A DNA stretch of 64,000 nt from an uncultured Candidatus Binatia bacterium (GTDB lineage Bacteria; Desulfobacterota; Binatia; HRBIN30; CADEER01), in the NCBI GenBank assembly GCA_965216585.1, contig CBDCGC010000002.1, positions 483,160 to 547,159 on the forward strand. The letters are read 5' to 3'. The stretch's first letter is position 1; each line of letters begins with the position of its first letter. Shown one piece after another: positions 15,443 to 60,597 of the stretch. Made by a program: the position numbers and the translations under genes. A model generated the notes under the pieces. That model was not told where the DNA came from. It saw nothing but the letters and a program-made list of their open reading frames with translations, and ran no database searches.

Positions 15443-16252
15443 TCAATCACATTGCAAAGAAAGAGCCTCCTCGATCCACGCCGCGAGTCTGCCTGCAATA
15501 ACCTCGACCCGGACTCCGTGTTCGTTAGAGTTTTCGTCGAACTTGGAAATGGAAACCAGCCAACAGCGCGTGGCCCAACGGAATTCCGTGTAGCGGTGCG
15601 GGCGTGGAAAAAACCGCCTTTCCCACAGCGCGGCCAGGTCGCCACGAAATCCGCGCAACACCTCGGGCGTAGCCTCGGAGCGAATCGCGGCGATCGGGCC
15701 AGTCGCGTCGTTGTATCGACGCATATTGACCTCCGCATGAGCTGAGCGACCCCAATCGCAAGTGAAGGAGTAGCGTCCGTTGGGCAAGTCAGCGGCAAGG
15801 CGCGCTGTTGAGCACGCGGTAGCTGTCGCGCCCAAGAACCGTTGCCACAGCGGATTGTCGAGGTCGGGCGTCGGCATGGAGGTCCGCGTAACCGTAGGCC
15901 AAGGCGTGAGCGTGATAGTCGGCGTGGCCGTTGGTGTCGGCGTTGGGCAACCGTTCAGGGATGCACGGACCGCCGCGATGATCTCAGAGATTGAGATCTT
16001 CCGATCAAAATCGAGATCGCTCGCCGAACACACGGCGTCACTACCGAGTGCGATGCCAATAGTGCGTGTGAGTTCAGCAACGGATACATCTCCGCTTCCG
16101 TTGCAGTCACCTGGACAGGCTGTGAGGGGGTGTGGCGAGAGTCCCAGTGTGACTGCCAACGCGATAAACACTCGGCTCCAACAAAATCGAGACTCACAAC
16201 GCTGCGACATCTTTGATCCCACGATTGCTTGCCTGACCCATGGCAGTGTCAT
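15443..16252 (-). CDS. Secreted protein with N-terminal dockerin-like Ca-binding repeat and a PT linker (hypothetical)
   Basis: Signal-like N-terminus, CPGDCNGSGDVSVAELTRTIGIALG, linker PTPTPTATPTITLTPWPTVTRT, then an unassigned ~150-aa domain. Confidence 0.5.
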   Translation of the reverse strand: MTLPWVRQAIVGSKMSQRCESRFCWSRVFIALAVTLGLSPHPLTACPGDCNGSGDVSVAELTRTIGIALGSDAVCSASDLDFDRKISISEIIAAVRASLNGCPTPTPTATPTITLTPWPTVTRTSMPTPDLDNPLWQRFLGATATACSTARLAADLPNGRYSFTCDWGRSAHAEVNMRRYNDATGPIAAIRSEATPEVLRGFRGDLAALWERRFFPRPHRYTEFRWATRCWLVSISKFDENSNEHGVRVEVIAGRLAAWIEEALSLQCD

Positions 16253-16401
16253 TGCTGACTACACGCAGGAAACGAACACGAGAACTGATACAGGCTCTCA
16301 CACTTGCCCGTATGGATTGCAAGGCCGATCCTTCAGGACTGTCCGGGTGGCAGCTGCACAGGCTAAATTGGCTTGAGGGAAATCGGGACAGACCCCTCTC
16401 C

Positions 16402-16603
16402 GAGCATTTAACCTCAAAGAAAAAATAATCCGCGAGGGAGAACGCGTCAGAGAGTGCCAGATGTGGCCGAGCGCAGCTTTCGGCAAGCGGAGTGTAGTCC
16501 ATCCTACATGAGCATTGCCGAGGGCGAGCACGGCCGCAGATGGCGCTCTATGGCGCGAGCTCGTGGCGTTTCTCGCCGTGGATTATTTTCTCTTTGAGGT
16601 TAA
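16402..16603. repeat. ~42-bp imperfect inverted repeats (16402-16445 / 16561-16603) around a ~115-bp spacer, in the lower-GC region upstream of tusA
   Basis: cctcaaagaaaaaataatccgcgagggagaacgc versus gcgtttctcgccgtggattattttctctttgagg (reverse-complement match ~85%). Spacer contains GGCCGCAGATGG. Confidence 0.5.
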
Positions 16604-16729
16604 GTGACTGAATCACTCTAAGTTTCTCGAACAAGGAGGGGCCTGTCTCCATTTTCCCGGCAGCGATATCGTCATCCGGTCGCTGGATCTTGCACGGGCG
16701 CATGCCGAGAATGCTGGAGATGGCGCACG

Positions 16730-16981
16730 GTGGCGAGCCAGCGTATTTTGTGTTTGATGGATGTGAAAAACGAGCTCGATTTGCGCGGTATTCCCTGTCC
16801 GCTTTCCTGGGCACATGCCCGCGTGCGGCTCGACGCGATGAAAAGCGGACAGCGGCTGGTGGTGATCCTCGACGAGGAACGCGGTGCCCGCGACATTCCG
16901 GCGGCCGCCGAAGCTGCCGGCTATTGCGCCGTCAACACCGAGCGCGACGGAATAGTGTGGCGACTCGAGATCGAGGTGTAA
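16730..16981 (+). CDS. tusA: TusA-like sulfurtransferase (SirA/YedF/YeeD family)
   Basis: 83 aa. LDLRGIPCPLSW contains the CPxP motif. SD GGAGGGG lies upstream. Confidence 0.7.
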   Translation: MASQRILCLMDVKNELDLRGIPCPLSWAHARVRLDAMKSGQRLVVILDEERGARDIPAAAEAAGYCAVNTERDGIVWRLEIEV

Positions 16982-17200
16982 CGGCTACAGGCTTCTTCCC
17001 GCGCCATGCCGCCAAGCGAGACTCGAGGGATGATACGAGAAGCGAAGGGGAGTGACTACCTTTTTCGCTTGAGCCAACTCGTCGCGAAGTTCATCACTTC
17101 TTGGCGCGAGAAGTGTTCGTCCCTCGAGGGCAATGCGCCGTGCTCATTGAGTTTCTGCGAAGCACGTCACTGTATGATCGCATCCCGGTCTGGGTCGACC

Positions 17201-17728
17201 TCAGTCGAGCATCATGTGGATGCGCTTGTTGTCGTCGACGGTCGCCAGCAGCTCGGAGATCGAAACGTTGAGGGAAGGGTGGATGAGCTGCGGCGCCAGC
17301 TCGGCCAGCGGTGCGAGCACGAAGCGGCGCTTCGGCAGGCGGGGGTGCGGCAGCTTGAGGTTGCGCTTGTTGAGCACCTCGTTGTTGAAGAGAAGGATGT
17401 CGAGATCGATGACGCGCGAGCCCCAGCGTTTGCCCTTGACGCGGCGGCGGCCCATCGCCTCTTCGATTTTCTTGGTGTTCTTGAGCAGATCAGTCGGGTT
17501 GATCTCGGTTTCGAGCTCGACGACGGCGTTGACGAACCAGGTCCTGGCGTCGCCGTGCGGTTCGCTTTCGTAGTAGGACGATGCCGCGACTACCCGCGTG
17601 TCAGGCAGCTCGCCCAGCTTGTCTCGCGCTTCCCGGCAGTTGGCCTTGCGATCGCCGAGATTCGAACCGATTCCAATAAATACCCGGTGGGGCATGCCAG
17701 TTGACCTCCCCGCATCCGCCTCTTCCAC
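17201..17728 (-). CDS. folK: 2-amino-4-hydroxy-6-hydroxymethyldihydropteridine pyrophosphokinase (HPPK)
   Basis: VFIGIGSNLGD...SSYYESEP...VIDLDILLF are HPPK signatures. Start may be the internal MPHRVF. Confidence 0.8.
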   Translation of the reverse strand: MEEADAGRSTGMPHRVFIGIGSNLGDRKANCREARDKLGELPDTRVVAASSYYESEPHGDARTWFVNAVVELETEINPTDLLKNTKKIEEAMGRRRVKGKRWGSRVIDLDILLFNNEVLNKRNLKLPHPRLPKRRFVLAPLAELAPQLIHPSLNVSISELLATVDDNKRIHMMLD

Positions 17729-17872
17729 CTCACCTCAGACCGGAATCCCGCCGCGTCCTGCTGTGCTGGCGGGGCCAACCTGACCGAAAATGCAGGGTTT
17801 TTATACAGATCTATACGGGCGAGTGCAAATTGACCGCTTGGTCGGGCGGTTTTCGACCGGGCGCGCCGCGGT

Positions 17873-20405: not shown

Positions 20406-20455
20406 GGAAATCCGGTGGTTAGCACGCACGGTGCTCGCTTCAAAGGCGGCGCTCG

Positions 20456-31808: not shown

Positions 31809-32630
31809 ATGCATTGCATGCGCGACCCGCGGCTCTACCAGATCGCCACCTTGCTCACGCTCATCGGCTTCGGCTCGCTGGTGGTCGGGCTCGGCGTTCG
31901 ACCGGCCAACGCCGCCGCCATCGTCGCCGCCGGTCTGCTGACACAGTGGGCGGCGGTGCGCCTGCTCGATCTGCGCTTCGACCCACTGAGCCCGCTGATT
32001 ACCTGCTTGTCGCTGACTCTGCTGCTGCGCACCGACGCCGCCTGGATCGCCGCCCTGGCGGCGGTGATCGCCATCGCTTCGAAGTTCCTGCTGCGATGGG
32101 ACGGCCGCCACTTCTTCAATCCGGCCAACCTCGGCATCGCCGCCGTACTCCTGTTGAGCGATGACGCCTGGGTTTCGGCCGGTCAGTGGGGCAGCACGGC
32201 CTTCTTCGGCTTTGCCGTGCTCTGCCTCGGCACCTTCGTCGTCACCCGCGCATTGCGCGCCGACGTGACTCTGGCCTTTCTCGGCGCCTACGCGGCGATG
32301 TTGACGGCGCGTGCTTTGTGGCTGGGCGACCCACTGGCGATTCCCGCCCATCACCTGCAGAACGGCGCCTTGCTGGTCTTTGCCTTCTTCATGATCTCGG
32401 ATCCGAAGACGACACCGAGCTCGTCGCCGGCGCGCGTCCTCTACGCCATCGTCGTCGCCGCCGGGGCGATGGCCGTCCACTTCGTTCTCTACCGGCCCAA
32501 CGGCCTGATCTGGTCGCTGGTCTGCAGCGCACCGCTGGTGCCGCTCTTCAATCGACTCTTTCCCGATCGGCACTACGTCTGGCCTGGCCTGGCGTTGCCC
32601 CTACAGCCCGCAACGAGGAGTGAAGCATGA
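31809..32630 (+). CDS. Polytopic integral membrane protein (hypothetical)
   Basis: 273 aa, ~7 hydrophobic helices, HFFNPANLGIAAVLL. Family not recognised. 4-bp overlap with the next gene. Confidence 0.45.
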   Translation: MHCMRDPRLYQIATLLTLIGFGSLVVGLGVRPANAAAIVAAGLLTQWAAVRLLDLRFDPLSPLITCLSLTLLLRTDAAWIAALAAVIAIASKFLLRWDGRHFFNPANLGIAAVLLLSDDAWVSAGQWGSTAFFGFAVLCLGTFVVTRALRADVTLAFLGAYAAMLTARALWLGDPLAIPAHHLQNGALLVFAFFMISDPKTTPSSSPARVLYAIVVAAGAMAVHFVLYRPNGLIWSLVCSAPLVPLFNRLFPDRHYVWPGLALPLQPATRSEA

Positions 32631-34066: not shown

Positions 34067-35509
34067 ATGTTCGTTCGCGTTTTGGCGCCGCTGCGCCGTT
34101 GGGTCGGCTGCGTGCTGTACGCGGCGGCGCTGCTTTCCCTGCTGGCTCCGGCACACCTGGTGCAATCAGCTCTGGCGGTTTCCCCGGTACCACTGGCGCG
34201 CCATAGCGGCGCTCGCTTCGACGGGCGAGCGCTGTCGATGGGTCTGACGCCGGCCGCCAGCGCGGTTCGGCGCCACCTCGGTCGCGCGAGTGACGGCAGG
34301 GCGATGAGCGTCGCCACATCGTCGGCGACGGCGCATCCATTGGCGTCGCCGATCTTTTTTCGCCAAGCCAGCGAATACCGTCTCGAGGACGACGTCGTCG
34401 CCGAATACGAGCTGGTGATCGGCCACAGTGGCGGTCGCGTCTGGATCGAATCGATCGACCGTTTCCCCGAAGCGACGGTCGGCAGCGAGGGGCTGCTGGC
34501 TCGGCTCGCTGGCGTCGAGATCCGCCGCACCATCGAGTTTGAAATGACCGGCTTCGAGTGGATGATCGAACGCGTCGTCGCGGCGGCGAACACCGACGCG
34601 AATCGTCACGCCGTGCTGGCGGCCATGCTCGAGGCGGGCGAGATCACCCACGGCGAGCTGCGCGACAGCGTTACCATCACCGAAGCTGACGGCGCCTCGA
34701 TCGTCATGCCGTCGGCGGATTTTTCGCTCGCTTCCTTCTTCGCCGGCCAAGGTAGCGGAGCGATTTCGGGCTGCGTCGTCGATTGTTTCGCCGAGATCGG
34801 TACGGCAATCACGGTTTTCGGCGCTCTGTGTTTGATCGCCGGCGCCGCCGTCTGCGGCGTCGCCTGTGCCGTTTCCGCCGGCGTTGCCTGTATTCCCTGC
34901 ATCAGTGGCGCCAGCCTCGCCTGCGGGCTTGGCGCCGCCGTCGGCTCGGTTGGCACCTGTCTCGCCTTCTGCATTTTCGGCGTCCGCCCGCCACCGACAC
35001 CGACGCGGCGTCCCTCGACGCGGACGCCAACACCGAATCGGGGAATCGCTTATACGGTCATCCCCGAATCTACCTCAATTGCAGTGGGTGAGGATTTTGA
35101 AGTTTCCTGGTCGGCTTCAGGTGCGCACTCCAACCGGGATTGGATCGCTCTCTATACGCCGAGCGCAGACAACCGTACCTTTATGGACTGGTCGTACATC
35201 TCGAGCGCAACCTCGGGGACGATCACGCTGACCGCACCGACCGACCCCGGCAGCTACGAGCTTCGCTTGCTCTTGGACAATGGATACCTGGAACCACTGC
35301 AACCAGCCCGCACGACGATTGTAGTGGAAGACCTCGAGCCGGGTGATTGCGACGGCGATTCGCGCATCACCATCAGTGAGTTGATCTTTGGTATCGGCAT
35401 TGCTCTCGGCCGCAACGATCTCTCGAATTGTCGGGACTTCGACGGCAACGGCAACGGCCGCGTCGACATCGCCGAGCTCATCCGCGCCGTGCGCGCGGCC
35501 TTGGGATAG
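34067..35509 (+). CDS. Secreted/membrane protein with Cys/Gly-rich segment, PT linker and C-terminal dockerin-like repeat pair (hypothetical)
   Basis: 480 aa. C-terminal GDCDGDSRITISELIFGIGIALG...DFDGNGNGRVDIAELIRAVRAALG. Confidence 0.5.
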   Translation: MFVRVLAPLRRWVGCVLYAAALLSLLAPAHLVQSALAVSPVPLARHSGARFDGRALSMGLTPAASAVRRHLGRASDGRAMSVATSSATAHPLASPIFFRQASEYRLEDDVVAEYELVIGHSGGRVWIESIDRFPEATVGSEGLLARLAGVEIRRTIEFEMTGFEWMIERVVAAANTDANRHAVLAAMLEAGEITHGELRDSVTITEADGASIVMPSADFSLASFFAGQGSGAISGCVVDCFAEIGTAITVFGALCLIAGAAVCGVACAVSAGVACIPCISGASLACGLGAAVGSVGTCLAFCIFGVRPPPTPTRRPSTRTPTPNRGIAYTVIPESTSIAVGEDFEVSWSASGAHSNRDWIALYTPSADNRTFMDWSYISSATSGTITLTAPTDPGSYELRLLLDNGYLEPLQPARTTIVVEDLEPGDCDGDSRITISELIFGIGIALGRNDLSNCRDFDGNGNGRVDIAELIRAVRAALG

Positions 35510-45979: not shown

Positions 45980-46216
45980 CACATTGTTTTGTTCAAATGG
46001 TGAGCACTTAGCCCGATAGGGTCCATCATATGACTTGTCCGCAGCTCAACGTTTCCATTGACACTACGCGCCCGACGGGTTCTAAATGGGGAACGTAATC
46101 AAGAAGAGTAGACTGGTCGCGAGCGGTGTATCTCGCACCGGTGTACTGGGGAATCGATGGGGAACTCGATGATGATCAAGGTTTGTAGACCACCGCGCCC
46201 GGCTGCCCGCAAAACC

Positions 46217-48391
46217 ATGGCGTACAAGGCTTTGCTTGCTACATCGCTGTGGACGCTCAGCCTTCTCGGCGAGCCGCTGCTGGCCCACCCGGTGAGCGGG
46301 AATCTGGCGAGCAACTGTCGCATCGTGGCGACCAACTCGAGTATCAGCGTCTATTTGGACGTCGACAACACCACAGAACAGCAAGCCAAGAACCTCACCG
46401 CGGGCCTGCTCGATGGAACTAATATCGGCGACGCCTCGGTTTTCATCAACGTCACTCCAGGTCGACAGACCATCTTGCCCGGCAAGCGCAAGACCTTTCG
46501 CTGGCGTGGCGAGATTTTCGGCAACGGATTTCTCGATCTGACCGTCAGTGTCACCGGCACCTGGGACGACGGGGATCCGGCGACGACGGGTTTGGTGAAC
46601 TGCCCGCGACTGACGGTCGGCGATCCGGCCAGCCTGACGCCGCCGCCGACCAACACGGAGGCGATCCAGCCGACCTTCGGCTCGCAGCCGACGGCGACAC
46701 CGAGTCGCCGCGACCGGCGCGACACGCCGGTGCCGGTCACCCGCGCACCGACCAACACGCGGCGGCCGACGCGCACACCGATTCCGCCGCGACCGACGCG
46801 CACGCGCATCCCGACCAGCACGCGGCGGCCGCCGAGCACACCGATCGAACGCGATACTCCTGGTGACAACCGGCCGACGCGCACTCCCGACATCGGCGGT
46901 GAGCCGACACCGGAACGCCGCGTTCGACCGACCCGCACACCGATCGTCGGCCGCGCGACGCGCACGCCGATTGGCGGGAGGGCGACCCGTACACCGGTGC
47001 CGCAGCGGCCGACCCGCACGCCGATCCAGCTGCGGCCGACGCGCACGCCGCGCGGCGCCAACGTGCTGCCGACCGTGCCGCGCGAAGGGCAGGTTCCGGC
47101 CGAGGTGGTCGGCCGTCTGACCGCCAACTGCAGCCTGCGCCAGACCAACGATCAGATTGCCGTTCGCATGGTCGTGCAAAACACCACCGCCGTCATGGTC
47201 ACCGATCTCGCCGCCAGCTTTCTCGACCTGACGCCGGAGGGCGGTGCGCTCTTCTTCGACCCGACCGGGCCGAGTCCGCGTTCGTACGGCATCTTCGCAC
47301 CGGGCGACAGCGTCGTCTTCGAGTGGGGCGGCCGTATGAACGACGTCGGCGTCATCGGTTTCGCAGCATCCGTCGCCGGTACGTCGCCGGGCGGCAACCC
47401 GGTCATCAGCGGACTCATCGACTGCGGTTTTGGCTCGGGGCCGAACGGCTCCTTCGACAGCTCGCTGTTCACCGGTTCGTGTAGCATCCGCACCGGCCGC
47501 GGCGGCGCCGTCACGCTGCTCATCAACAACCGCAGCGGCGAGCCGATGTCCGAAATCGATCCGCGCTTGATCGACACCTCGTCGACCGGCACGGCGCAGG
47601 TCAATAGCCTGCGCGGTCCGGCGCCGCGGCGCCTGCGCCGGCTCGCCGGCGGTCAAACCCAGGAGTTTCTCTGGGAAGCCGATGTCCTCGGCAGCGGCAA
47701 CGTGAGCATGACGTTCCAGGCCGATGGCACGGTCGAGAGCGGTGACCGCATCAGCACGCCGACGATCACCTGCTCGACCGAGCTGGCGGCCACCGGCGGC
47801 TTGCCCGATCTCTCTGTCGACGAGCTCGATCAGCGCGGCTCCTGGGTCGTCGAAGAGCAGTTCTTCGGCCCCGGTCACTGCGCTCTCTTCGAAGGCTGTG
47901 TCGGCGGCAGCGGGGTGCGCCGGCTGCTCAAGTTCAACACGACGACACCCAACCACGGCCCCGGCGACCTCTTCCTCGGCGATCCGACCAACAATCCGGA
48001 GTTCATCTTCTCCGAGTGCCACCAGCACTTCCACTTCGAGGATTACGCCATCTATCGCCTGCTCGACATGAACGGCAATCAGGTGGCGCAGGGGCACAAG
48101 CAGGCCTTCTGCCTGGTCGACCTGTGGCGCCCGCCGGGCTCCAACGGTGCCCGCAACCCGGGCTTCCCCGACTGCGGTTTTCAGGGCATCAGCGCCGGCT
48201 GGGCCGACGTCTACCACCGCGATCTGGACTGCCAGTGGATCGACATCACCAACGTCCCGGACGGCCGCTACATCCTCGAGGTCCACATCAACCCGGCCCG
48301 GGTGGTGCAGGAATCGAACTACGCGAACAACATCGCGCGCAACGAGGTGTGCATCGGCATCCCAGAGGACGACGGCTGTGCGCGATTCTGA
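46217..48391 (+). CDS. Secreted lysyl oxidase (LOX) family protein: signal peptide, three Cys-bracketed ~110-aa domains, PTRTP-rich linker, C-terminal LOX catalytic domain
   Basis: C-terminal ~170 aa: CHQHFH (48016-48033), GHKQAFCLVD (Lys 48097-48099), VYHRDLDCQWIDITNV (Tyr 48212-48214), ILEVHINP...ESNYANNIARN. These align with animal LOX WEWHSCHQHYH / GHKASFCLED / TYGADIDCQWIDITDV / ILKVSVNP...ESDYTNNVVRC. Start taken at MAYKALLATSLWTLSLL (signal peptide). Confidence 0.8.
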   Translation: MAYKALLATSLWTLSLLGEPLLAHPVSGNLASNCRIVATNSSISVYLDVDNTTEQQAKNLTAGLLDGTNIGDASVFINVTPGRQTILPGKRKTFRWRGEIFGNGFLDLTVSVTGTWDDGDPATTGLVNCPRLTVGDPASLTPPPTNTEAIQPTFGSQPTATPSRRDRRDTPVPVTRAPTNTRRPTRTPIPPRPTRTRIPTSTRRPPSTPIERDTPGDNRPTRTPDIGGEPTPERRVRPTRTPIVGRATRTPIGGRATRTPVPQRPTRTPIQLRPTRTPRGANVLPTVPREGQVPAEVVGRLTANCSLRQTNDQIAVRMVVQNTTAVMVTDLAASFLDLTPEGGALFFDPTGPSPRSYGIFAPGDSVVFEWGGRMNDVGVIGFAASVAGTSPGGNPVISGLIDCGFGSGPNGSFDSSLFTGSCSIRTGRGGAVTLLINNRSGEPMSEIDPRLIDTSSTGTAQVNSLRGPAPRRLRRLAGGQTQEFLWEADVLGSGNVSMTFQADGTVESGDRISTPTITCSTELAATGGLPDLSVDELDQRGSWVVEEQFFGPGHCALFEGCVGGSGVRRLLKFNTTTPNHGPGDLFLGDPTNNPEFIFSECHQHFHFEDYAIYRLLDMNGNQVAQGHKQAFCLVDLWRPPGSNGARNPGFPDCGFQGISAGWADVYHRDLDCQWIDITNVPDGRYILEVHINPARVVQESNYANNIARNEVCIGIPEDDGCARF

Positions 48392-48568
48392 GAAAATACA
48401 CAAATCCGCAGAATTCGGGAGAAAGTTCTTGACTGCGGGAGTGAAAATTGAGTAGTTTGCGACCATCGTTCTATAGTATCGGAATTGGGGGACTAGAGAT
48501 CTTGCGAAAAACTGCTGACATTTTCGAAACTTACGGGAATTCAGCGGCGATTTGCAGGTTCCTAGATC

Positions 48569-48576
48569 AAGGAGGA
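48569..48576 (+). promoter_or_regulatory. Shine-Dalgarno AAGGAGGA, 8 nt upstream of the ATG at 48585
   Basis: Strong consensus RBS within a 190-bp lower-GC intergenic region. Confidence 0.6.
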
Positions 48577-48584
48577 CAGCTCAT

Positions 48585-50105
48585 ATGACGAAACTGCGAT
48601 TGGCTCAGGTCACGCTTTTGAGCGTGGCCATCGCGGTATTCACCGTGGGGAGTGCGGGGGCGCAAGCAGTCCGCACGCGGAAACCCACCAAGACACCACG
48701 TCCGACTCGCACGCAGATCGTAGATCAGGCGAGGACGCGCAAGCCGACCAAGACGTCGCGGCCTACCCGCACGCAAGTGATCGACCAGGCGCGCACCCGC
48801 AAGCCGACCAAGACCTCGCGGCCGACTCGCACGCAGATCGTCAAAGATCTGCGCACGCGCAAGCCGACCAAGACCTCGCGGCCGACTCGCACGCCGATCG
48901 TCAAAGATCTGCGCACCCGCAAGCCGACCAAGACCTCGCGGCCGACCCGTACGCCGATCGTCAAAGATCTGCGCACGCGCAAGCCGACCAAGACCTCGCG
49001 GCCAACTCGTACGCCGATCATCAAGGACGTGCGCACGCGCAAGCCAACCAAGACCTCGCGGCCGACCCGTACGCCGCTGAGTGTCGAGGTGAGGACGCGC
49101 AAGCCGACCAAGACGCAACGGCCGACTCGCACGCCGATTCTCAAAGAGGTGAGGACGCGCAAGCCGACCAAGACCTCGCGGCCGACCCGCACGCCGATCA
49201 GCTTGGATGTACGCACGCGCAAGCCGACCAAGACACAGCGGCCGACCCGTACGCCGATCGTCAAAGATGTGCGCACGCGCAAGCCGACCAAGACGCAGCG
49301 GCCGACTCGTACGCCGATCATCAAAGACGTGCGCACGCGCAAGCCGACCAAGACGATGCGTCCGACTCGTACGCCGATCTCAAACGAGATCCGCACGCGC
49401 AAGCCGACCAAGACCTTGCGGCCGACCCGTACGCCGATTCTCAAAGAGGTGAGGACGCGCAAGCCGACCAAGACCTTGCGGCCGACCCGTACGCCGGTCT
49501 CGAACGAGATTCGCACACGCAAGCCGACCAAGACACTGCGGCCGACTCGTACGCCTTTCATCAAGAACGAGAGAACGCGCAAGCCGACCAAGACCCTGCG
49601 GCCGACTCGTACGCCAGTTTCGAACGAAGCCCGCACGCGCAAGCCGACCAAGACCCTGCGGCCGACCCGTACGCCTGCACCTCTCGAGGCCCGCACGCGC
49701 AAACCGACCAAGACCCTGCGGCCGACTCGCACGCCGGTTCCCGAGGAAGCGCCTGAGGCGTTCGATCCTAGCGACGTGACTGCTCGGTGCTATGCCAGCA
49801 ACAAGGGTGGTCCCGACGGCAAGAAGGATCTCGTCCGCATCCTGATGCAGGTGTCAAACCGCTCTGGCGCGGCCGTCCGAGTTAGCGCCGGTGGAATCGA
49901 CATCAGTGGCTCTGGCAACTATGAGCCAGTTACTGGCGCGGCAGGGAATTCAAAACCCGTCAGAAGCTCGGTGGTCCTCTCTTGGACAATTCGAGTTCGC
50001 GGAACGCTCAGCGTGACGGCTACTGCGAATGCATCGGGCCCGAATGGCGAGCAGATTCCGTTGTCAGCCGACTGCGGGAGTGTGACAGGAGCACCTGCTC
50101 TCTAA
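48585..50105 (+). CDS. Secreted Lys/Arg/Thr/Pro-rich tandem-repeat protein: 18 x 20-aa repeats RTRKPTKTxRPTRTPIxKDV plus a C-terminal Cys-bracketed ~110-aa domain
   Basis: Signal peptide MTKLRLAQVTLLSVAIAVFTVGSAGAQA. Repeats have perfect 60-nt periodicity. C-terminal domain resembles the Cys-bracketed domains of the upstream LOX protein. Confidence 0.75.
   Translation: MTKLRLAQVTLLSVAIAVFTVGSAGAQAVRTRKPTKTPRPTRTQIVDQARTRKPTKTSRPTRTQVIDQARTRKPTKTSRPTRTQIVKDLRTRKPTKTSRPTRTPIVKDLRTRKPTKTSRPTRTPIVKDLRTRKPTKTSRPTRTPIIKDVRTRKPTKTSRPTRTPLSVEVRTRKPTKTQRPTRTPILKEVRTRKPTKTSRPTRTPISLDVRTRKPTKTQRPTRTPIVKDVRTRKPTKTQRPTRTPIIKDVRTRKPTKTMRPTRTPISNEIRTRKPTKTLRPTRTPILKEVRTRKPTKTLRPTRTPVSNEIRTRKPTKTLRPTRTPFIKNERTRKPTKTLRPTRTPVSNEARTRKPTKTLRPTRTPAPLEARTRKPTKTLRPTRTPVPEEAPEAFDPSDVTARCYASNKGGPDGKKDLVRILMQVSNRSGAAVRVSAGGIDISGSGNYEPVTGAAGNSKPVRSSVVLSWTIRVRGTLSVTATANASGPNGEQIPLSADCGSVTGAPAL
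48669..49748 (+). repeat. 18 tandem copies of a 60-bp coding repeat
   Basis: Unit approx cgcacgcgcaagccgaccaagacctcgcggccgac(c/t)cg(c/t)acgccgatcgtcaaagatctg, with third-position and C-terminal codon variation. Confidence 0.9.
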
Positions 50106-50284: not shown

Positions 50285-51781
50285 ATGCGCGTACGAATTC
50301 TCGGGCTTTACTCTCTAATTGCGTTTCTCCTGCTGGCGGCGAGCGCGGTGGCGCAGACGCCCAGCGTGACGCCCACCCCGGGGGGCGACTGTTGCTCGAT
50401 TCACCCCGGGCCGAGCTGCGACATTCCGGCTTGTGCGGCCTGTGTCTGCGAAGACCAGGAAGAGCCTCTGTGCTGTGTCGACGGCAGTCCGGAGGGCTGG
50501 GATCGCATCTGTCTCGCCTTTGCCGAGAGTGACGACTGTGCCGAGGTCTGTTTGTGCGGCGAGCCGCCGACGCCGACGCCGACGCCGGGTGGTGACTGCT
50601 GCTTGCCGCACGCCGGTAGCCGCTGCGACGACGAAGCGTGTACGACCTGCGTCTGCGACCGCGACAGCAACTGCTGCACGGGACCTTGGGACGCGTTCTG
50701 CGTCGAGTCGGCGCGTACGGTCGACGAGTGCGCGGGCGAGTGCTCGGATTGTATGCCGCTGCCGACCATCCCGCCGCTGGCGACGCCGACGCCCGGACCT
50801 TGTTGCGAAGGCCGCGATCTCAATCCCGGTTGCGATGAGAGTATGTGCGAGAGCTGCGTCTGCGCCGTCGACGCAAACTGCTGCCTCGACACCTGGGACG
50901 AGCTCTGCGCCGTCATCGCGGTCGAGGAGTGCGCCATCGATTGCGTCTGCGTCGAGGACGGCGACTGCTGTAGCGGACACGACGGTTTTGGTTGCAATGA
51001 CCGGCGTTGTCAGGAGTGTGTCATCGCCCTCGATCCGGAATGTGGCGAGCAGTGGGACGACGACTGCGCATCGGAGGCGCGGCTCGAGTGCGCGCTCGAC
51101 TGCACCTGTGGCGATTGCTGCGCCGAGAATCCGGACGAGGTACCGGGCTGCGGCGTCAAACCCTGCCAAGACTGCGTTTGCGAGATCGACGAGGAGTGCT
51201 GCACGGAGCTGTGGGATGCGCAATGCGACTCGATCGCTCGCGATGAATGCTCGCTCGACTGTCCGTGCTTGAACTGCTGCGAGGAACAGGTGGTTCCGGG
51301 CTGCGGTGAGAAGGAGTGTCAGACCTGTGTCTGCGCCCTCGATGCGAATTGCTGCGATGAAGTATGGGACGGCATCTGTGCCGCCCGCGCCGTCGAAGAG
51401 TGCGACCGCCGCTGCGAGTGCGAGGCCGGCAGCAACTGTTGTATCGCCCGGCCGACCGAGACGGGTTGCGACGAAAGCGCCTGCGAAGCGTGTGTCTGCG
51501 GCGTCGACGATTTCTGCTGCACCGACCTGTGGGATTCCACCTGCTCGGACGAGATCACCGTCAACGAGTGCGCCGCCGAATGCTCATGTGATCCTGGGAG
51601 CTGTGTCGGCGATTGCGATGGCGACGGCGAAGTCTCGATCGGTTCGCTCATCCGCTGCGTCGGCGTCGCCCTCGGCAACTCTCCGGTCAGCGAGTGCCGC
51701 GCCTGCGATGCCGATGGAGACGGCGAGGTCTCGATCGGCGAGCTCATCCAGGCCGTCGGCAACGCCCTCGAGGGCTGCTGA
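50285..51781 (+). CDS. Secreted Cys-rich repeat protein: 7 x ~52-aa 10-Cys repeats plus C-terminal dockerin-like pair
   Basis: Signal peptide MRVRILGLYSLIAFLLLAASAVA. Repeat pattern CC-x6-8-GC-x3-C-x2-CVC-x4-CC-x3-WD-x2-C-x8-EC-x3-C-x-C. PTPTPG linkers. C-terminal CVGDCDGDGEVSIGSLIRCVGVALG...CDADGDGEVSIGELIQAVGNALEGC. Confidence 0.7.
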   Translation: MRVRILGLYSLIAFLLLAASAVAQTPSVTPTPGGDCCSIHPGPSCDIPACAACVCEDQEEPLCCVDGSPEGWDRICLAFAESDDCAEVCLCGEPPTPTPTPGGDCCLPHAGSRCDDEACTTCVCDRDSNCCTGPWDAFCVESARTVDECAGECSDCMPLPTIPPLATPTPGPCCEGRDLNPGCDESMCESCVCAVDANCCLDTWDELCAVIAVEECAIDCVCVEDGDCCSGHDGFGCNDRRCQECVIALDPECGEQWDDDCASEARLECALDCTCGDCCAENPDEVPGCGVKPCQDCVCEIDEECCTELWDAQCDSIARDECSLDCPCLNCCEEQVVPGCGEKECQTCVCALDANCCDEVWDGICAARAVEECDRRCECEAGSNCCIARPTETGCDESACEACVCGVDDFCCTDLWDSTCSDEITVNECAAECSCDPGSCVGDCDGDGEVSIGSLIRCVGVALGNSPVSECRACDADGDGEVSIGELIQAVGNALEGC

Positions 51782-54207: not shown

Positions 54208-54237
54208 ATTCGAAACCGTGCCGCGCGGCGTGGTCGG

Positions 54238-55600: not shown

Positions 55601-55685
55601 ATGGATCGGTTTGGGAGCCGGCCAAATAGTCGATATACCTGCTCGCTGCTCTCTCGGAACCTTTCAACGCAAGAAGTGAGGCATC

Positions 55686-56663
55686 ATGTTTGCGAGCCCT
55701 GACGACGTCATCGCCAAGCTGGCCGAGCGCCAGTACATCTGCAACAAGAGAATCGCGACGGCGGTCTACCTGGCGGTCGAATTGGAGAAACCGGTTCTCG
55801 TCGAAGGACCGGCCGGAGTAGGCAAGACCGAGCTCGCCAAGGTGGTCGCCGATGCTCTCGATCTCGATCTGATTCGCCTGCAGTGCTACGAGGGCCTCGA
55901 CGAGGCCAAGGCGCTGTACGAGTGGGAGTACGCCAAGCAACTGCTCTATACGCAGATTCTGAAAGACAAGATCGGCGCGATTCTCGAAGGGACGTCGACG
56001 CTGAACGACGCGGTCGAGCGCATCGCCAAGCAGGACGACGTCTTCTTCTCCGATCAGTTCATTCTGCCGCGGCCGCTCCTGCAGTCCATCTCGGCAGCGC
56101 AGCGCACGGTGCTGCTGATCGACGAAATCGACAAATCCGATTCCGAGTTCGAGGCGTTTCTGCTCGAGATTCTGTCCGACTTCGCCGTCAGCGTGCCCGA
56201 GATCGGGACTCTGCGCGCTCAACACATCCCGCTGGTTTTCCTCACCAGCAACAACGCGCGCGAAATGTCCGATGCGCTCAAGCGGCGCTGCCTGCACCTC
56301 TACATCGATTTCCCGAGCGCCGAACAAGAGCTCGACATCGTTCGCCTCAAAGTTCCGGCGATCGCCGACGAGCTGGCCGAGCAAGTCGTCGACGCGGTGC
56401 AGAAGATCCGCGACATCGACTTGAAGAAGGTGCCGAGCATCTCCGAGACGCTGGACTGGGCGCGCACGCTCACCGTGCTCAACGCGGCGACGCTCGACCG
56501 CGAGATCGTCGAGGACACGCTCAACGTCATCCTCAAATACGAGGGGGACATTCGCAAGGCGCAAGATGAGTTGAAGAATCTGATCGCCAGCGGTGAAGCG
56601 GAGACGGCGGCGCCGGCCTCGGAAGAGGGCGGCACGGAGGCGAAGAAGGACCTCCTGCACTGA
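55686..56663 (+). CDS. MoxR-like AAA+ ATPase
   Basis: 325 aa. Walker A GPAGVGKT, Walker B LLIDEIDK, MoxR architecture. Confidence 0.85.
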   Translation: MFASPDDVIAKLAERQYICNKRIATAVYLAVELEKPVLVEGPAGVGKTELAKVVADALDLDLIRLQCYEGLDEAKALYEWEYAKQLLYTQILKDKIGAILEGTSTLNDAVERIAKQDDVFFSDQFILPRPLLQSISAAQRTVLLIDEIDKSDSEFEAFLLEILSDFAVSVPEIGTLRAQHIPLVFLTSNNAREMSDALKRRCLHLYIDFPSAEQELDIVRLKVPAIADELAEQVVDAVQKIRDIDLKKVPSISETLDWARTLTVLNAATLDREIVEDTLNVILKYEGDIRKAQDELKNLIASGEAETAAPASEEGGTEAKKDLLH

Positions 56664-56693
56664 CGGCGCTGCGCCCGTCACTCGGCTGAGAAC

Positions 56694-58103
56694 ATGGACG
56701 AGCGAATCGTCGAGTTCACCTCGCTGCTGCGCGACAACGGCCTGCGCGTTTCGATGGCCGAGCACCTCGATGCCTTCGCCGCCGTGCGCCACCTCGGTTT
56801 GGCCGACCGCCATCTCTTTCGCGACACCTTGCGGACGACGATGGTCAAACGCTCGGTGGATGGACCGCTCTTCGACGAGCTCTTCGACCTCTACTTTTCC
56901 GAGCTCGGCGGCGCCATCCAACAGGCGACAGGCAATCTCGCCGAGCAGCTCGAAATCGGTGAGGCGGATCTGCAGAGCTTGCTCGATCAGCTCCGGGATC
57001 TGCTCGGCGACTCCGACCTCGACTTGTCGGAGCTCGCCAAGGCGCTGCTCGAAAACGACGGCGGCCGCCTCGAGGAGTTGTTGAGGGAAGGGCTCGAGCA
57101 GGCCGATGCGGCATCGATCGAGCGCGTCTACCAGGAGGGACGCTACGCCCAGAAGCTCAGCGAGGCCATGGGTGCCGACGCCTTGGCCGACGAGCTCGCC
57201 CAGCTCGGGCAGATGCTCGACGACATGGATCTGCCGGCCGAGCTACGCGAGCTGCTCGACAAGCTGTTCGAGCAGCGCATGAAGGATTTGCGCGACATGA
57301 TTCGCCGCGCCGTGCGGCTGGAGCTGGAGAAGCGCGACCACACCCAGCGCGAACGCGATCGCATGGCCAACTTGGCTGAGAAGAGCTTCTACTATCTTTC
57401 CGAAGACGAGATGCGGCGTATGAAGGAAGCCGTGGCGCGCCTGGCGCAGCGTTTGAAGAACGTCGTCGCGATCCGCCGCAAACGAGCCAAGCGCGGCAAG
57501 TTCGACGTCAAAGCGACGTTGCGCAAGAACCTGCAATACGGCGGCATACCGTTTCACATCCACTTCGATCGCCGCGTTCGCGAACGACCACAGGTGGTCG
57601 TGCTCTGCGACGTTTCCGATTCGGTGCGCAACGTCTCGCGCTTCATGTTGCAGTTCGTCTACTCCCTGCAGGACCTCTACTCGCGTGTACGCTCGTTCAT
57701 TTTCGTTTCCGACATCGGCGAGATCACACAGCTCTTCGAAGAGAACGAAACCCAGGACGCGATTGCCCAGGCGTTGACGGGCAACGTCATCAACGTCTAC
57801 GCCCACTCCGACTTTGGCCACGCCTTTCGCGACTTTCACCGCGACCATTTGACCGCGGTCAACAACCGGACGACGGTGATCGTCCTCGGCGACGCGCGCA
57901 ACAACTACAACCTGCCGCACGAGTGGGTGCTGCGCGACGTCCAGCAGCGCGCCAAGCAGGTGATCTGGCTCAACCCCGAAAGCAAGCTCACCTGGGGATT
58001 CGGCGATAGCGAGATGGATCGCTACAGCCCGTTTTGCGACATCGTCGAAGAGTGTCGCAATCTCAACCAGCTCTACCGGGTCGTCGATCGCATGGTGAAA
58101 TGA
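56694..58103 (+). CDS. VWA domain-containing CoxE-like protein (MoxR partner)
   Basis: 469 aa. C-terminal VWA-like region (VVVLCDVSDS MIDAS-like DxSxS), immediately downstream of the MoxR ATPase. Confidence 0.7.
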   Translation: MDERIVEFTSLLRDNGLRVSMAEHLDAFAAVRHLGLADRHLFRDTLRTTMVKRSVDGPLFDELFDLYFSELGGAIQQATGNLAEQLEIGEADLQSLLDQLRDLLGDSDLDLSELAKALLENDGGRLEELLREGLEQADAASIERVYQEGRYAQKLSEAMGADALADELAQLGQMLDDMDLPAELRELLDKLFEQRMKDLRDMIRRAVRLELEKRDHTQRERDRMANLAEKSFYYLSEDEMRRMKEAVARLAQRLKNVVAIRRKRAKRGKFDVKATLRKNLQYGGIPFHIHFDRRVRERPQVVVLCDVSDSVRNVSRFMLQFVYSLQDLYSRVRSFIFVSDIGEITQLFEENETQDAIAQALTGNVINVYAHSDFGHAFRDFHRDHLTAVNNRTTVIVLGDARNNYNLPHEWVLRDVQQRAKQVIWLNPESKLTWGFGDSEMDRYSPFCDIVEECRNLNQLYRVVDRMVK

Positions 58104-58181
58104 GCCGCCGGCGGCAGGGGCGGGGATTCTTTGTTGACCGGGGGAAACCTTTCTGGGCACAATTGCACGGGGAACCCGAAC

Positions 58182-58706
58182 ATGCCGCCCGCAGATTCGA
58201 TTGAAATGAACGTCGGTGGATTGACTCTCGATCCGTCGACACGGAGCCCGATCGTCGTCTTGAAGGATTCCGGCAACACCGTGAATCTGCCGATTTGGAT
58301 CGGCCTGCTCGAGGCGACTGCGATCGCCACCGAGATCGAGGGCGTCGAGATGGCGCGGCCGATGACGCACGATCTGCTGTCCAAGATGATCGATGAGCTC
58401 GGCGGTGAGGTGGTGCACGTCGAAATCAGCGATTTGCGAGAAAACACGTACTACGCTCGTATTCAGATTCGCACCAACGGCGAATCGCGGACGATCGATT
58501 CGCGGCCCAGCGATGCGATCTCCCTGGCGCTGCGCGTGAAGAGCCCGATCTACGTCGCCCGCAAGGTTCTCGAAGCGTCGGAGAGCGCCGTCCAGGTCGT
58601 CGACGAGGAGGGCGCGGGCGAACCCGATCTCTCCACGGTGTCGCGCGAGAAGTGGTCGGAGATTCTCGAAAAGATGTCGCCGGACGACTTCAAGTACAAG
58701 ATGTAG
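58182..58706 (+). CDS. Bifunctional nuclease family protein (DUF151/BFN)
   Basis: Start MPPADSIEM. VVLKDSGNTVNLPIWIG...ARPMTHDLL...RPSDAISLALR is characteristic of BFN. Confidence 0.6.
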   Translation: MPPADSIEMNVGGLTLDPSTRSPIVVLKDSGNTVNLPIWIGLLEATAIATEIEGVEMARPMTHDLLSKMIDELGGEVVHVEISDLRENTYYARIQIRTNGESRTIDSRPSDAISLALRVKSPIYVARKVLEASESAVQVVDEEGAGEPDLSTVSREKWSEILEKMSPDDFKYKM

Positions 58707-58727
58707 GTAGGCCCGACCGCCCGCGCG

Positions 58728-59426
58728 GTGGCCAAGGTGCTCGGCACATCGCCGGGCAGAGGGGGAAGGAGCTCCATGGCGAAGGATCGCATGGACCGCA
58801 AGGAACTGCGCCAACCGGATGAGTTCGTCACGGCGACCACCGGAGCGCTCGAGTGGGCTCGGAAACACGCCAACACGGTGCTCGCCGTGGCCGGCGGGCT
58901 GTTGGCCATCTTGCTGGGAATCGGTTTCTACAATTCGCAACAGGCGGCGCGCCTGCACGACTCCAACAGCGATCTGAGTAGTGGCTTGGCGTCGTTTCGC
59001 AGCGAAGACTTTGCCGTCGCTTCGACTCAGCTCGACCAGGTGGCGACGCAGTGGAAGAGCGAAGCGGTCGGACCGCTGGCCGGCGTCATGGCCGCCAACA
59101 GTCGGCTGCGCGCCGGCGATGCGGACGGCGCCATCGTGGCGCTGGGCGCGCTCGACGACGCCGGCTTGCCGCACTACATCCGCCAGCAGCGCGCGCTGGT
59201 CTGGGCGAGCGCGCTCGAAGCCAAGGGCGATTGGGCCGCGGCGGCGGCGAAGTACGCCGAGGCGGCGGCGGTCGAAGGCCCGTACAGCGGCGAAGCCCTG
59301 GTCGGTGAAGCGCGCAGCCGGGCGCGCAACGGCGACACCGATGCGGCGGCGAAGCTCTATCGCCGTATCGTCGAGGAATACCCGGATCGCCCGGACAGCA
59401 AGCTGTTGAGCGCCAAGCTCGGCTGA
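58728..59426 (+). CDS. Membrane-anchored TPR-like protein (YfgM-like, hypothetical)
   Basis: Single TM (VLAVAGGLLAILLGIGFY) then an Ala-rich helical repeat region. Start may be at 58776. Confidence 0.4.
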   Translation: MAKVLGTSPGRGGRSSMAKDRMDRKELRQPDEFVTATTGALEWARKHANTVLAVAGGLLAILLGIGFYNSQQAARLHDSNSDLSSGLASFRSEDFAVASTQLDQVATQWKSEAVGPLAGVMAANSRLRAGDADGAIVALGALDDAGLPHYIRQQRALVWASALEAKGDWAAAAAKYAEAAAVEGPYSGEALVGEARSRARNGDTDAAAKLYRRIVEEYPDRPDSKLLSAKLG

Positions 59427-59442
59427 TGCGGGAATTTCCTCG

Positions 59443-60597
59443 ATGTCCGATAAGATTGATTATGTAAAGTTAGAAATGGACTCCGCTGTGGTTGGCTCCC
59501 TTCCCCTGGTGTCGCGGAATCTAAAGACTTTTTGGCGGATTTCCGCCCTCTGCCTGGTCATTGCCGGCGCTCCCGCGAATCTGCCTGCCGAACAGGCCTG
59601 TACGGGTGATGCCGATCGCGACGGCGCCGTGCGTATCGCCGAGTTGATCCAGGCGGTCGGCAACGCGCTCGAGGGCTGCGAAGAGATTCCGGGTACCTGC
59701 AACGGCGACGCGAACTGCGACGGCGTCGTCGCCATCAACGAGCTCATTCTGGCGGTCGGCTACGCGCTCGACGGCTGTCCGCTGGCGCGCGCCGTCAGCG
59801 TCGCCTGGCTCGAGCAGGCGCTCGACCGCACCGACGTGCAGATCATCGACGCCCGTGTCGGCGGCTTCGCGGGTGGCCACATCCCCGGCGCCCTGCCCCT
59901 GTCACCGTATATGTTGGCGGCGCCTTCCGGCGGTGTCGATTTTCAGATCCTCGAAGCCGAGAGCGCCGCCATGGTGCTGAGCGAGGTCGGCCTGCGCAGC
60001 GATGCCATCGCCGTCGTCTACGGCGCCGCACCCGAGTTCGACCCGGCGCGCGTCGTCTGGGCGCTCGAATACCTCGGCCACGCCGACGTGCGCTACCTCG
60101 ACGGTGGTTTCGCGGCCTGGCAGGCGGCGGGCGCGGATGTCGCCGCTGGCGAGCCGGTGCCCGCGCCCGCTTCGTCCTATCCGGTGGCGATACGCGAGCA
60201 GCTTCGCGTCACCAGCGACTGGGTACTCGAGCAGCTCGGCGATGCACCGTACGAGAACCCGGCCATTCAGGTCGTCGACGCCCGCTCGCCGGCCGAGTAC
60301 GCGATGGGAATCATCCCCACCGCCGTGCACCGGCAGTGGACGATCAATCTCGACGGCGGACTCCTGCTGCCGCGCGCCGACCTCGACGCGCTCTACGCCG
60401 ATCTCGACAAGGCGCGCACGACGGTCGTCTACTGCCTCGCCGGCTGGCGCGCGTCGTTCGCCTGGCTGACGCTCGCCGGTCTCGGTTTCGAAGACGTCAG
60501 AGTCTACGACGGCTCGTGGCTGGAATGGGGCAACGGCGAGTTCCCGGTTCACGTTCCACCGACGGTCGGCAACGTTGCCGTATCGGCGGACTTCTGA
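59443..60597 (+). CDS. Tandem-rhodanese thiosulfate sulfurtransferase with N-terminal dockerin-like repeat pair
   Basis: N-terminal CTGDADRDGAVRIAELIQAVGNALEGC...CNGDANCDGVVAINELILAVGYALDGC. Two rhodanese domains, the second with active-site VVYCLAGWRAS. Confidence 0.7.
   Translation: MSDKIDYVKLEMDSAVVGSLPLVSRNLKTFWRISALCLVIAGAPANLPAEQACTGDADRDGAVRIAELIQAVGNALEGCEEIPGTCNGDANCDGVVAINELILAVGYALDGCPLARAVSVAWLEQALDRTDVQIIDARVGGFAGGHIPGALPLSPYMLAAPSGGVDFQILEAESAAMVLSEVGLRSDAIAVVYGAAPEFDPARVVWALEYLGHADVRYLDGGFAAWQAAGADVAAGEPVPAPASSYPVAIREQLRVTSDWVLEQLGDAPYENPAIQVVDARSPAEYAMGIIPTAVHRQWTINLDGGLLLPRADLDALYADLDKARTTVVYCLAGWRASFAWLTLAGLGFEDVRVYDGSWLEWGNGEFPVHVPPTVGNVAVSADF

Follow-up and report, generated by a model that had tools for sequence, protein, structure and literature searches.

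The stretch of DNA analysed here, referred to as the window, comprises 64,000 nucleotides (64 kb) from an uncultured Candidatus Binatia bacterium (contig CBDCGC010000002.1, positions 483,160 to 547,159). Four of its genes encode otherwise unrelated secreted proteins that share a small dockerin-like module with conserved cysteines. These are the genes for a protein of 269 amino acids (aa; 15443..16252, minus strand), a 480-aa protein (34067..35509, plus strand), a Cys-rich repeat protein (50285..51781, plus strand) and a two-domain rhodanese, a sulfurtransferase (59443..60597, plus strand). Each of the four proteins begins with a basic-then-hydrophobic segment that resembles a signal peptide by eye. 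The modules are probably disulfide-stapled, Ca2+-binding dockerins that dock their cargo onto cohesin scaffolds, an arrangement in the style of the cellulosome but not devoted to cellulose.

The module of about 60 aa consists of two halves of about 27 aa, each formed by a 12-residue Ca2+-binding loop and one helix (an F-hand). Its four conserved cysteines are numbered C1 to C4 here. The shared motif is seen in the translations of all four open reading frames (ORFs), and a regular expression run over all six frames of the window finds no match outside them. A hidden Markov model (HMM) of the half-repeat, built from the eight 27-aa halves of the window, recovers exactly eight halves, two in each protein, at E 1e-12 to 1e-14 each. 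The next best match in the window reaches only E 0.35. A second HMM, of 221 modules that all come from other organisms, recovers the modules of the 269-aa protein (module 1, E 3.8e-24), the 480-aa protein (module 2, E 9.3e-22), the Cys-rich protein (module 3, E 1.6e-27) and the rhodanese (module 4, E 2.8e-18), and the next match has E 1.8. Because of the scores of both models, the motif can be taken as real, far beyond chance.

The four copies differ in detail. Module 1 (15947..16117, minus strand; CPGDCNGSGDVSVAELTRTIGIALGSDAVCSASDLDFDRKISISEIIAAVRASLNGC) has all four conserved cysteines, and its loop 2 is degenerate at position 6. Module 2 (35339..35506, plus strand) forms the exact C-terminus of its protein and keeps only the inner pair of cysteines, C2 and C3. 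Module 3 (51602..51778, plus strand) is a six-Cys form with one additional Cys in helix 1 and another at position -1 of loop 2; position 12 of its loop 1 is Ser. Module 4 (59599..59778, plus strand) is a symmetric variant: it lacks C2, and each of its halves is bracketed C...GC. Two relatives (P0079 and P0174) share this variant.

A preliminary description of this DNA had placed the motif on four unrelated secreted proteins, and translation, pattern search and both HMMs find it in just these genes. Some of its particulars have changed. It credited the 269-aa protein with a single copy and the window with seven. That protein has a full pair, its second loop reading DLDFDRKISISE, and there are therefore eight half-repeats, in four pairs. 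Consistent bracketing by cysteines, also claimed, describes three of the four modules and fails for module 2, which lacks the outer C1 and C4. PT linkers do not distinguish these modules from cellulosomal dockerins, as had been supposed, since such linkers are also typical of cellulosomal proteins; the linker abuts the module directly only in the 269-aa protein. As to the lysyl-oxidase (LOX)-associated cargo that it listed, the lysyl-oxidase protein at 46157-48391 itself has no module.

The cargo parts of the four proteins have little in common. The N-terminal module of the 269-aa protein lies between the signal peptide and a PT linker, behind which comes a C-terminal domain of about 150 aa. 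At its N-terminus the protein has a hydrophobic region ending ...LTA|C. The C-terminal domain has no family match, with no Pfam family at E <= 1. NCBIfam gives the protein weak, sub-cutoff matches only (best E 0.006), of which the best is the XopAW calcium-binding effector (16.5 bits against a cutoff of 120), lying over the module; for the modules of the window, NCBIfam names no other family. The 480-aa protein is composed of a signal peptide, an N-terminal domain, a hydrophobic stretch, a PT linker and the C-terminal module, and the region between linker and module was read by eye as a beta-rich domain. The hydrophobic stretch, at aa ~225-305, is about 80 aa long and rich in Gly, Ala and Cys (…GCVVDCFAEIGTAITVFGALCLIAGAAVCGVACAVSAGVACIPCISGASLACGLGAAVGSVGTCLAFCIFGV…). 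An ortholog of this protein in a related genome (locus L069, 8945-10171) is 43% identical over 298 aa and has the same module with inner cysteines only. A DUF2330 gene (32624-33982) lies directly upstream of the gene in the window.

For the Cys-rich protein, the most likely start is the ATG at 50285 (MRVRILGLYSLIAFLLLAASAVA, signal peptide) and not the TTG at 49982 given by a mechanical ORF listing. The protein contains 88 Cys in 498 aa (17.7%), and its approximately seven repeats of about 50 aa (50285-51600) precede the C-terminal module. The repeat follows the pattern CC-x(5-12)-C-x(2-5)-C-x2-CVC-x(2-8)-CC-x(3)-WD-x(2)-C...C-x(2-4)-C-x-C and has no family match in Pfam or NCBIfam. In the rhodanese, the module follows the signal peptide at the N-terminus. 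Pfam Rhodanese matches this protein in two stretches (E 6e-34), and the NCBIfam model for 3-mercaptopyruvate sulfurtransferase gives 84 bits, below its cutoff.

Module anatomy and predicted fold

The consensus of the 221 aligned modules reads C-x-G-D-C-[DN]-G-D-G-x-V-[TS]-[IV]-x-E-L-[IV]-x-G-V-N-I-A-L-G-x-x-P-[LV]-S-x-C-P-A-x-D-x-[ND]-G-D-G-x-V-[TS]-[IV]-x-E-L-I-x-A-V-N-N-A-L-N-G-C-P. A PT-rich linker often precedes it. Each of the two loops follows the canonical EF-hand pattern and has Glu at its position 12 in 90-93% of the modules, and seven of the eight loops in the window have the canonical ligands at positions 1, 3, 5 and 12 (Glu). The spacing from loop to loop is 32 aa in 265 of 293 parsed modules. 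Each of the four cysteines is at least 97% conserved in the 221 modules, a best-scoring tier that is somewhat biased toward Cys-bearing modules.

The cysteines are lost in characteristic patterns. C1 and C4 are missing together in 10 modules, among them module 2 and that of its L069 ortholog, and single losses number about four. Modules without C2, such as those of the rhodanese, P0079 and P0174, have instead gained a Cys at the end of helix 1. Two extra positions, in helix 1 and at residue -1 of loop 2, are each occupied by Cys in 16-17% of modules. These patterns suggest a C1-C4 disulfide that would clasp the termini, a C2-C3 disulfide and an optional third pair.

An AlphaFold2 (AF2) model was obtained for the module of the Cys-rich protein (68 residues, 32 aligned sequences; pLDDT 90.6, pTM 0.75). 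A helix follows each loop. Loop 1 lacks an entering helix and loop 2 is preceded by no more than short turns, so that the helix-loop-helix with an entering helix, paired into the four-helix EF-hand domain (PF00036, PF13499), is not seen. In a Foldseek comparison with the Protein Data Bank (PDB), type I dockerins make up the 13 best matches and 27 of the 31 best. They include 4uyp_B, 8x39, 2ccl_B, 6kgf_B and 1ohz_B, with TM scores of 0.5-0.63, root-mean-square deviations (rmsd) of 2.5-3.9 A and probabilities up to 1.0. EF-hand proteins superpose with rmsd 9-12 A, those of the calmodulin type with about 11 A, at a probability of 0.2 or less. Since Foldseek ranks dockerins first and EF-hand proteins superpose poorly, the module is predicted to hold its EF-hand loops in a dockerin fold of two F-hands.

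Cargo, cohesins and scaffoldins in related genomes

The module belongs to a large family. A HMMER search of 1.84 billion cluster representatives (50% identity) returns 11,249 proteins at E <= 1e-3; at the stricter limit of E <= 1e-10 there are 5,999 cluster representatives. Many family proteins have two to five modules, and a few of the matches are true multi-EF-hand proteins (for example P0056 and P0067). Matches with an 'SRC' source proved to be read-derived catalogue entries, and the idea that they stem from the genome of the window was rejected. Among the 148 best proteins, 65 have the module at the C-terminus, 38 have it at the N-terminus behind the signal peptide, 19 have it at both ends and 22 at an internal position. 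One genome per species of the Genome Taxonomy Database (GTDB) was also scanned, using an alignment of 11 sequences. More than 587 matches to the pattern GDCDGDGxV, which biases toward canonical modules, yielded 229 confirmed modules, and 80 loci from 27 metagenome-assembled genomes (MAGs) were kept, up to 10 from one MAG. The family is concentrated in Candidatus Binatia MAGs. Nearly all of the 27 are labelled either Candidatus Binatia or 'Deltaproteobacteria/Thermodesulfobacteriota bacterium', the exceptions being one each of Myxococcales, Gemmatimonadota and Desulfosarcina. The window is syntenic with one of the Binatia loci (L025), in which the mdh-type and sucC-type products are 78% and 70% identical in amino-acid sequence and the gene order is the same.

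Cargo was surveyed with Pfam in 105 representative module proteins and 90 module ORFs from the genome loci (195 in all). The families found include FG-GAP repeats; NHL, lactonase and YncE-type beta-propellers; subtilases and pro-kumamolisin; cytochrome P460, di-haem peroxidase (MauG) and PQQ propellers; and imelysin, CARDB, beta-helix, DUF4215 and disintegrin. Among the 25 most frequent cargo families listed, the sole glycoside hydrolase is one alpha-L-fucosidase, and there are no cellulases and no xylanases. The window itself contributes the two-domain rhodanese, the Cys-rich repeat protein and two proteins without a family match. A cargo dominated by carbohydrate-active enzymes (CAZymes), which would mark a cellulosome, is thus not what these proteins carry.

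A candidate partner emerged from an all-against-all comparison of the non-module regions of the 148 module proteins. Sixteen of them share a domain of about 150 aa that has four nearly invariant Cys of its own and stands in tandem in as many as three copies. It occurs within 10 kb of a module in seven loci from seven different MAGs, or seven of the 27 sampled. Against the PDB, a profile of this domain (A6) gives 11 matches at E < 0.02, all of them cohesin or scaffoldin chains. The best is Coh5 of Ruminococcus flavefaciens ScaB (5n5p_A, E 1.5e-9). Clostridium acetobutylicum CohA2 (6kgc_A, E 3.8e-7) is aligned end to end, and OlpA, CipA, CipC and an Archaeoglobus cohesin (2xdh, 3e-3) match more weakly. 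The next entry after the cohesins is ribosomal L21, at E > 0.1. The AF2 model of the domain is all-beta (pLDDT 86.6), and its top 50 Foldseek matches are all cohesins (E 3e-6 to 6e-4, TM 0.54-0.71, probability 1.0). The domain thus has both marks of a cohesin (PF00963), profile homology and a predicted fold like the nine-stranded beta-sandwich of solved cohesins. Probes for phmmer based on CipA and CipC cohesins found no match.

In every source that names them, the cohesin-bearing proteins are called 'hypothetical protein', probably because the domain all but escapes the Pfam Cohesin model. Of 10 proteins tested, the best (P0110) scores 23.1 bits against a threshold of 24.1, and most give no match. 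One homolog has a precomputed PF00963 match, and two of the 105 relatives match at E <= 1e-3. In a reciprocal test, 80 metagenome loci centred on the cohesin contain 85 ORFs with 133 cohesin domains (up to five per ORF), and 20 of the cohesin ORFs also carry the module. The module is found in 38 of these 80 loci, and in 15 of the 26 that are 8 kb or more in length.

In related genomes of the Candidatus Binatia type, cohesins are found on anchoring scaffoldins, on adaptors together with the module, and beside module genes. Five architectures can be distinguished: (a) one to four cohesins behind a signal peptide, then a PT linker and, at the C-terminus, a tail such as GGFDDDSCAIVAPEASSSGWMLLMPMAALLWLRRRTR; (b) a cohesin that comes after a lipoprotein-type signal peptide (LAGC), in P0194; (c) proteins that, like adaptor scaffoldins, combine one or more cohesins with the Cys-stapled module; (d) a cohesin and a small conserved two-Cys C-terminal domain; and (e) large multidomain proteins with one cohesin. 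The small two-Cys domain (...PTSKEQCKNGGWRTFTVPRTFKNQGDCIQFVNTGK) ends many single-cohesin proteins (P0188-P0192; L088, L089, L093, L163 and others) and has no family match. Two loci (L018 and L010) each have two module genes with an anchored scaffoldin directly downstream, whose product ends ...DDxCAIVAP...LLWLRRRxR. In a third (L081), a module gene and the gene for an anchored cohesin converge. Three consecutive cohesin genes at another locus (L084, 6234-11514) encode a 1,243-aa Big_2 protein with one cohesin, a 209-aa protein with one and a protein of about 360 aa with two; this run looks like a scaffoldin gene cluster.

Sorting tails of the form ...(D/E)DDGC-x-[IV]-x-x...GWLLLLPAxxLLWLRRRSR end about 27 of the 77 cohesin ORFs in the 80 cohesin-centred loci that are complete at the 3' end. 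Scored alone against the MYXO-CTERM model TIGR03901 (cutoff 20), the tails of the L018 and L010 scaffoldins reach 25.5 and 20.6 bits. Whole proteins fall below the cutoff (L018, 19.2 bits; P0201, 15.4 bits) or give no match (P0204). The tripartite form of MYXO-CTERM, an invariant-Cys motif, a transmembrane segment and an Arg cluster, is present in the scaffoldin tails. This form has been described for surface proteins processed by myxosortase (Haft 2023, bioRxiv 10.1101/2023.06.07.544157).

A second kind of module is seen on some cohesin-bearing adaptors. P0046, P0053 and P0068 have a divergent six-Cys 'type B' module (for example CTGDCDGNGTVDRSEWSTCVDIWNGLQSLGACPPCDGDADGVVTEEEVAVAKYNYTHGC) at the N-terminus and a canonical module at the C-terminus. 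The coexistence of the two types hints at two dockerin specificities and hierarchical assembly.

Genes around the modules in the window

The idea that the four module genes form a dedicated island was rejected, as they are scattered among arg, dap, uvr, suc and other housekeeping genes. The other genes of the window have housekeeping or defence functions (type I restriction-modification, uvrD, dapA/B, argG/H, OTC, hslU, xerC, sucC and uvrB), and Pfam and NCBIfam scans of the predicted genes of the window show no cohesin, sortase or scaffoldin. Around the 80 seed modules, 1.12 Mb of flanking sequence contains another 46 modules, of which 28 lie no more than 4 kb from the seed. Because flank density elsewhere is similar, four modules in 64 kb are typical of the lineage and do not make a special cluster.

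Some neighbours deserve mention in their own right. A gene at 43496-45979 (plus strand) encodes a multi-transmembrane protein fused to a spermidine-synthase-like domain; its homolog in another locus (L047, 44% identity) also adjoins a module gene. In the window it is followed by the gene for the secreted lysyl-oxidase-domain protein (46157-48391, plus strand), in which two N-terminal beta-sandwich-like repeat regions are split by a Pro/Thr/Arg-rich linker of about 150 aa with RPTRTP repeats. Between the LOX and Cys-rich genes, two long ORFs overlap on opposite strands (48552-50105, plus; 48725-49789, minus). The minus-strand ORF has the higher GC content at third codon positions and a weak hexapeptide-repeat match. 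The rhodanese gene is the last of a same-strand run (55686-60597, plus strand) that includes a MoxR-like AAA ATPase (55686-56663), a VWA/CoxE-like protein (56694-58103), a small ORF and a TPR protein (58728-59426). A sulfurtransferase that is exported and tethered would be unusual. At the other end of the window, a type I restriction-modification system (468-9372, minus strand) comprises HsdM (7099-9372) and an HsdR (468-4103) with a C-terminal Schlafen/AlbA_2 domain.

A docking model and its alternatives

The proposed mechanism has four steps. (i) All four proteins would be exported by the Sec pathway, directed by their signal peptides. (ii) The module would bind two Ca2+ ions and be locked by two disulfides: C1-C4 would clasp the N- and C-termini, and C2-C3 would tie loop 1 to the linker before loop 2. 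In some modules, that of the Cys-rich protein included, a third pair would be added. (iii) The module would plug into a cohesin on scaffold proteins of the same organism, whether anchored or adaptor; cohesins are presumably encoded in this organism's own genome. (iv) A diverse exoproteome, with the sulfurtransferase of the window as one member, would thereby be tethered to the cell envelope. Ca2+ binding, cohesin binding and surface location of the module proteins are all predictions of this scheme. Placement at either terminus is expected if the termini meet at the C1-C4 clasp. The near-identical halves suggest, by analogy, a dual binding mode as in type I dockerins, where it is known from 2VN5/2VN6-type complexes.

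The preliminary description had proposed a non-cellulosomal targeting system of the cohesin-dockerin type, and that reading gains support here, the binding itself being predicted. The dockerin-like nature of the motif is borne out by the match of the AF2 model of a window module to solved type I dockerins. The HMM search and structure prediction that it recommended have enumerated the family in relatives and predicted a dockerin-like fold. Its expectation of diverse cargo agrees with the Pfam results for module proteins of relatives and of the window, which are mostly not carbohydrate-active. As to the cohesin-like partner on which it made the idea depend, the lineage has a cohesin family, and there is none within the 64 kb.

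Several observations weigh against a docking role. By sequence alone, the closest solved proteins are the EF-hand pairs of calmodulin and CaBP1 (E 4e-10 and weaker). Pfam Dockerin_1 (PF00404) gives the best window protein 12.3 bits against a threshold of 22.9 and does not match the other three. The Foldseek E-values of the module model are weak (0.06-1), as its length of only 68 residues would lead one to expect, though the ranking is clear. The cohesin profile finds no cohesin in the window (best E 1.6), and elsewhere most cohesin ORFs come from samples taken around modules or from short contigs of unknown taxonomy. The evidence for the disulfide pairing consists of patterns of presence and absence only. 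Finally, the host is diderm, and both cargo and scaffold would need a way across the outer membrane.

Some of these points would fit a module that acts as a self-contained stabilising or folding cap, held by Ca2+ and disulfides: a generic extracellular EF-hand pair without a dedicated partner. Such a cap might, for example, make folding conditional on export to a Ca2+-rich, oxidising compartment. This explanation is improbable. It draws on the resemblance to calmodulin and CaBP1, the lack of a cohesin in the window, the canonical loops with Glu at position 12 and the label 'Ca2+-binding EF-hand superfamily protein' that the Joint Genome Institute (JGI) gives to some family members. In Pfam searches of the 105 relatives (E <= 1e-3), EF-hand_1 is found in 65 and Dockerin_1 in 16; on modules of the window, EF-hand_1 scores 22.9 and 18.5 bits, below its threshold of 25.4. 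EF-hand pairs (calmodulin, CaBP1; EF-hand_1, EF-hand_7) do share the doubled 12-residue loop D-x-[DN]-x-[DN]-G-x-[VI]-x-x-x-E. Unlike them, however, the module has no entering helices and is 4-5 residues shorter between the loops, alignments to calmodulin and CaBP1 requiring insertions of 4-5 residues, and it would be extracellular and disulfide-bonded. Its predicted fold matches dockerins and not helix-loop-helix pairs. It is also a mobile terminal appendage behind PT linkers on hundreds of unrelated cargos, and because it is terminal and separated by a linker, an interaction tag is favoured over an integral stabiliser. The helix positions are strongly conserved across cargos (VNIALG, AVNNALNGC), and fusion or adjacency to cohesins is far above chance.

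There is likewise little likelihood that the module is an adhesin or ligand tag for something other than a cohesin, be it exopolysaccharide, minerals, other cells or, through self-association, another dockerin. The literature does discuss non-cellulosomal dockerins of Omnitrophota, of ANME archaea (ANME being the name of the group) and of syntrophic sulfate-reducing bacteria as adhesins, and the cargo includes the adhesion-type domains FG-GAP, CARDB and disintegrin. The proteins with two to five modules could be taken the same way, but several modules on one protein are a typical trait of adaptor scaffoldins too. Nothing in the module points to carbohydrate-binding residues, and a matched cohesin family with anchoring tails, co-occurring with the module and fused to it, is the simpler partner. 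A secretion or sorting signal for a transport or processing machine, later removed or modified, is very improbable: the module does lie at extreme termini, often ending exactly ...GC or ...GCP, in a lineage with Cys-containing C-terminal sorting tails on other proteins, but it is found at either terminus and internally, unlike position-specific signals, is a folded 60-aa domain predicted to bind Ca2+ without a transmembrane segment or basic tail, and at the N-terminus comes after an ordinary signal peptide. All three alternatives are weakened by the dockerin fold, the positional freedom of the module and its enrichment with cohesins.

If the modules do dock onto cohesins, the nearest likeness is to the type I systems of clostridial and ruminococcal cellulosomes (C. 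thermocellum 1OHZ/2CCL, C. acetobutylicum 6KGC-6KGF, A. cellulolyticus 5NRK). Common to both are a module of about 60 aa with a duplicated Ca2+-loop and helix, terminal behind PT linkers on diverse cargo; beta-sandwich cohesins, single or in tandem; adaptors that combine cohesin and dockerin; and cell-anchored scaffoldins. The predicted folds of both partners also match type I structures best. The differences are several. The Binatia dockerin has four, sometimes six, cysteines and its cohesin four; the spacing of the loops is fixed at 32 aa; and position 12 of the loop is Glu, the usual residue in type I dockerins being Asp. Most family members score below the Pfam thresholds for Dockerin_1 and Cohesin. 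The host is uncultured and apparently non-cellulolytic, the cargo is almost free of CAZymes, and the anchors are MYXO-CTERM-like tails or lipoprotein signals rather than SLH domains or sortase. These tails resemble MYXO-CTERM in their tripartite form and in scoring at or near the TIGR03901 cutoff; unlike it, their Cys signature, (D/E)DDGC-x-[IV]-x-x-P, is not matched by the N-terminal positions of the model. The dockerin of R. flavefaciens ScaA is reported to have a non-covalent intramolecular clasp, a contact between the termini that stabilises the fold (PMC3821032). The putative C1-C4 disulfide, to which covariation points, would do the same job but covalently.

Cohesins and dockerins outside cellulosomes are already known, from Archaeoglobus fulgidus (2XDH), ANME archaea, syntrophic sulfate reducers and Omnitrophota. 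In ANME, scaffoldin-like proteins have one dockerin and up to five cohesins. Adhesion or surface organisation is the role generally guessed for such modules, which were reportedly surveyed by Peer et al. in 2009. The Binatia system resembles these in having cohesin and dockerin on proteins unrelated to cellulose breakdown. It differs in the size of the family (~6,000 clusters at 50% identity) and its pairing with MYXO-CTERM-like anchors. The kind itself is thus not new, since non-cellulosomal cohesin-dockerin modules have precedents. Full-text literature searches for dockerin with Binatia, Binatota or Desulfobacterota_B and related terms returned no such description. What appears to be undescribed is the cysteine-stapled form of both partners, with the proviso that the earlier non-cellulosomal systems were not compared for cysteines, together with the MYXO-CTERM-like anchoring, the family size and the concentration in Binatia.

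A larger picture can be sketched tentatively, and as a whole it is rather doubtful. Binatia and allied uncultured diderms might possess a network on the scale of the cellulosome in which both partners are disulfide-locked. About a hundred or more dockerin proteins per genome would be served by adaptor scaffoldins with at least two dockerin sub-types and by myxosortase-processed, lipid-anchored scaffoldins. Such a network would organise a redox and hydrolytic surface exoproteome of sulfurtransferase, cytochrome P460, peroxidases and proteases, and would form a distinct, undescribed branch with an oxidation-dependent assembly switch.

Few known protein-protein interactions are as strong as those of cohesin-dockerin pairs, which have found wide use in synthetic biology. 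If the docking role is true, this family would offer a large natural test case, with thousands of dockerin-tagged proteins carrying non-CAZyme cargo and matched cohesins on recognisable surface anchors, and its disulfide staples could give redox-switchable or unusually stable orthogonal pairs. Binatia are abundant but uncultured bacteria of soil and sediment. Many of their 'hypothetical' or 'EF-hand' proteins could then be re-annotated as parts of one surface-tethered exoproteome, and enzymes such as the secreted rhodanese of the window would be predicted to act at the cell surface.

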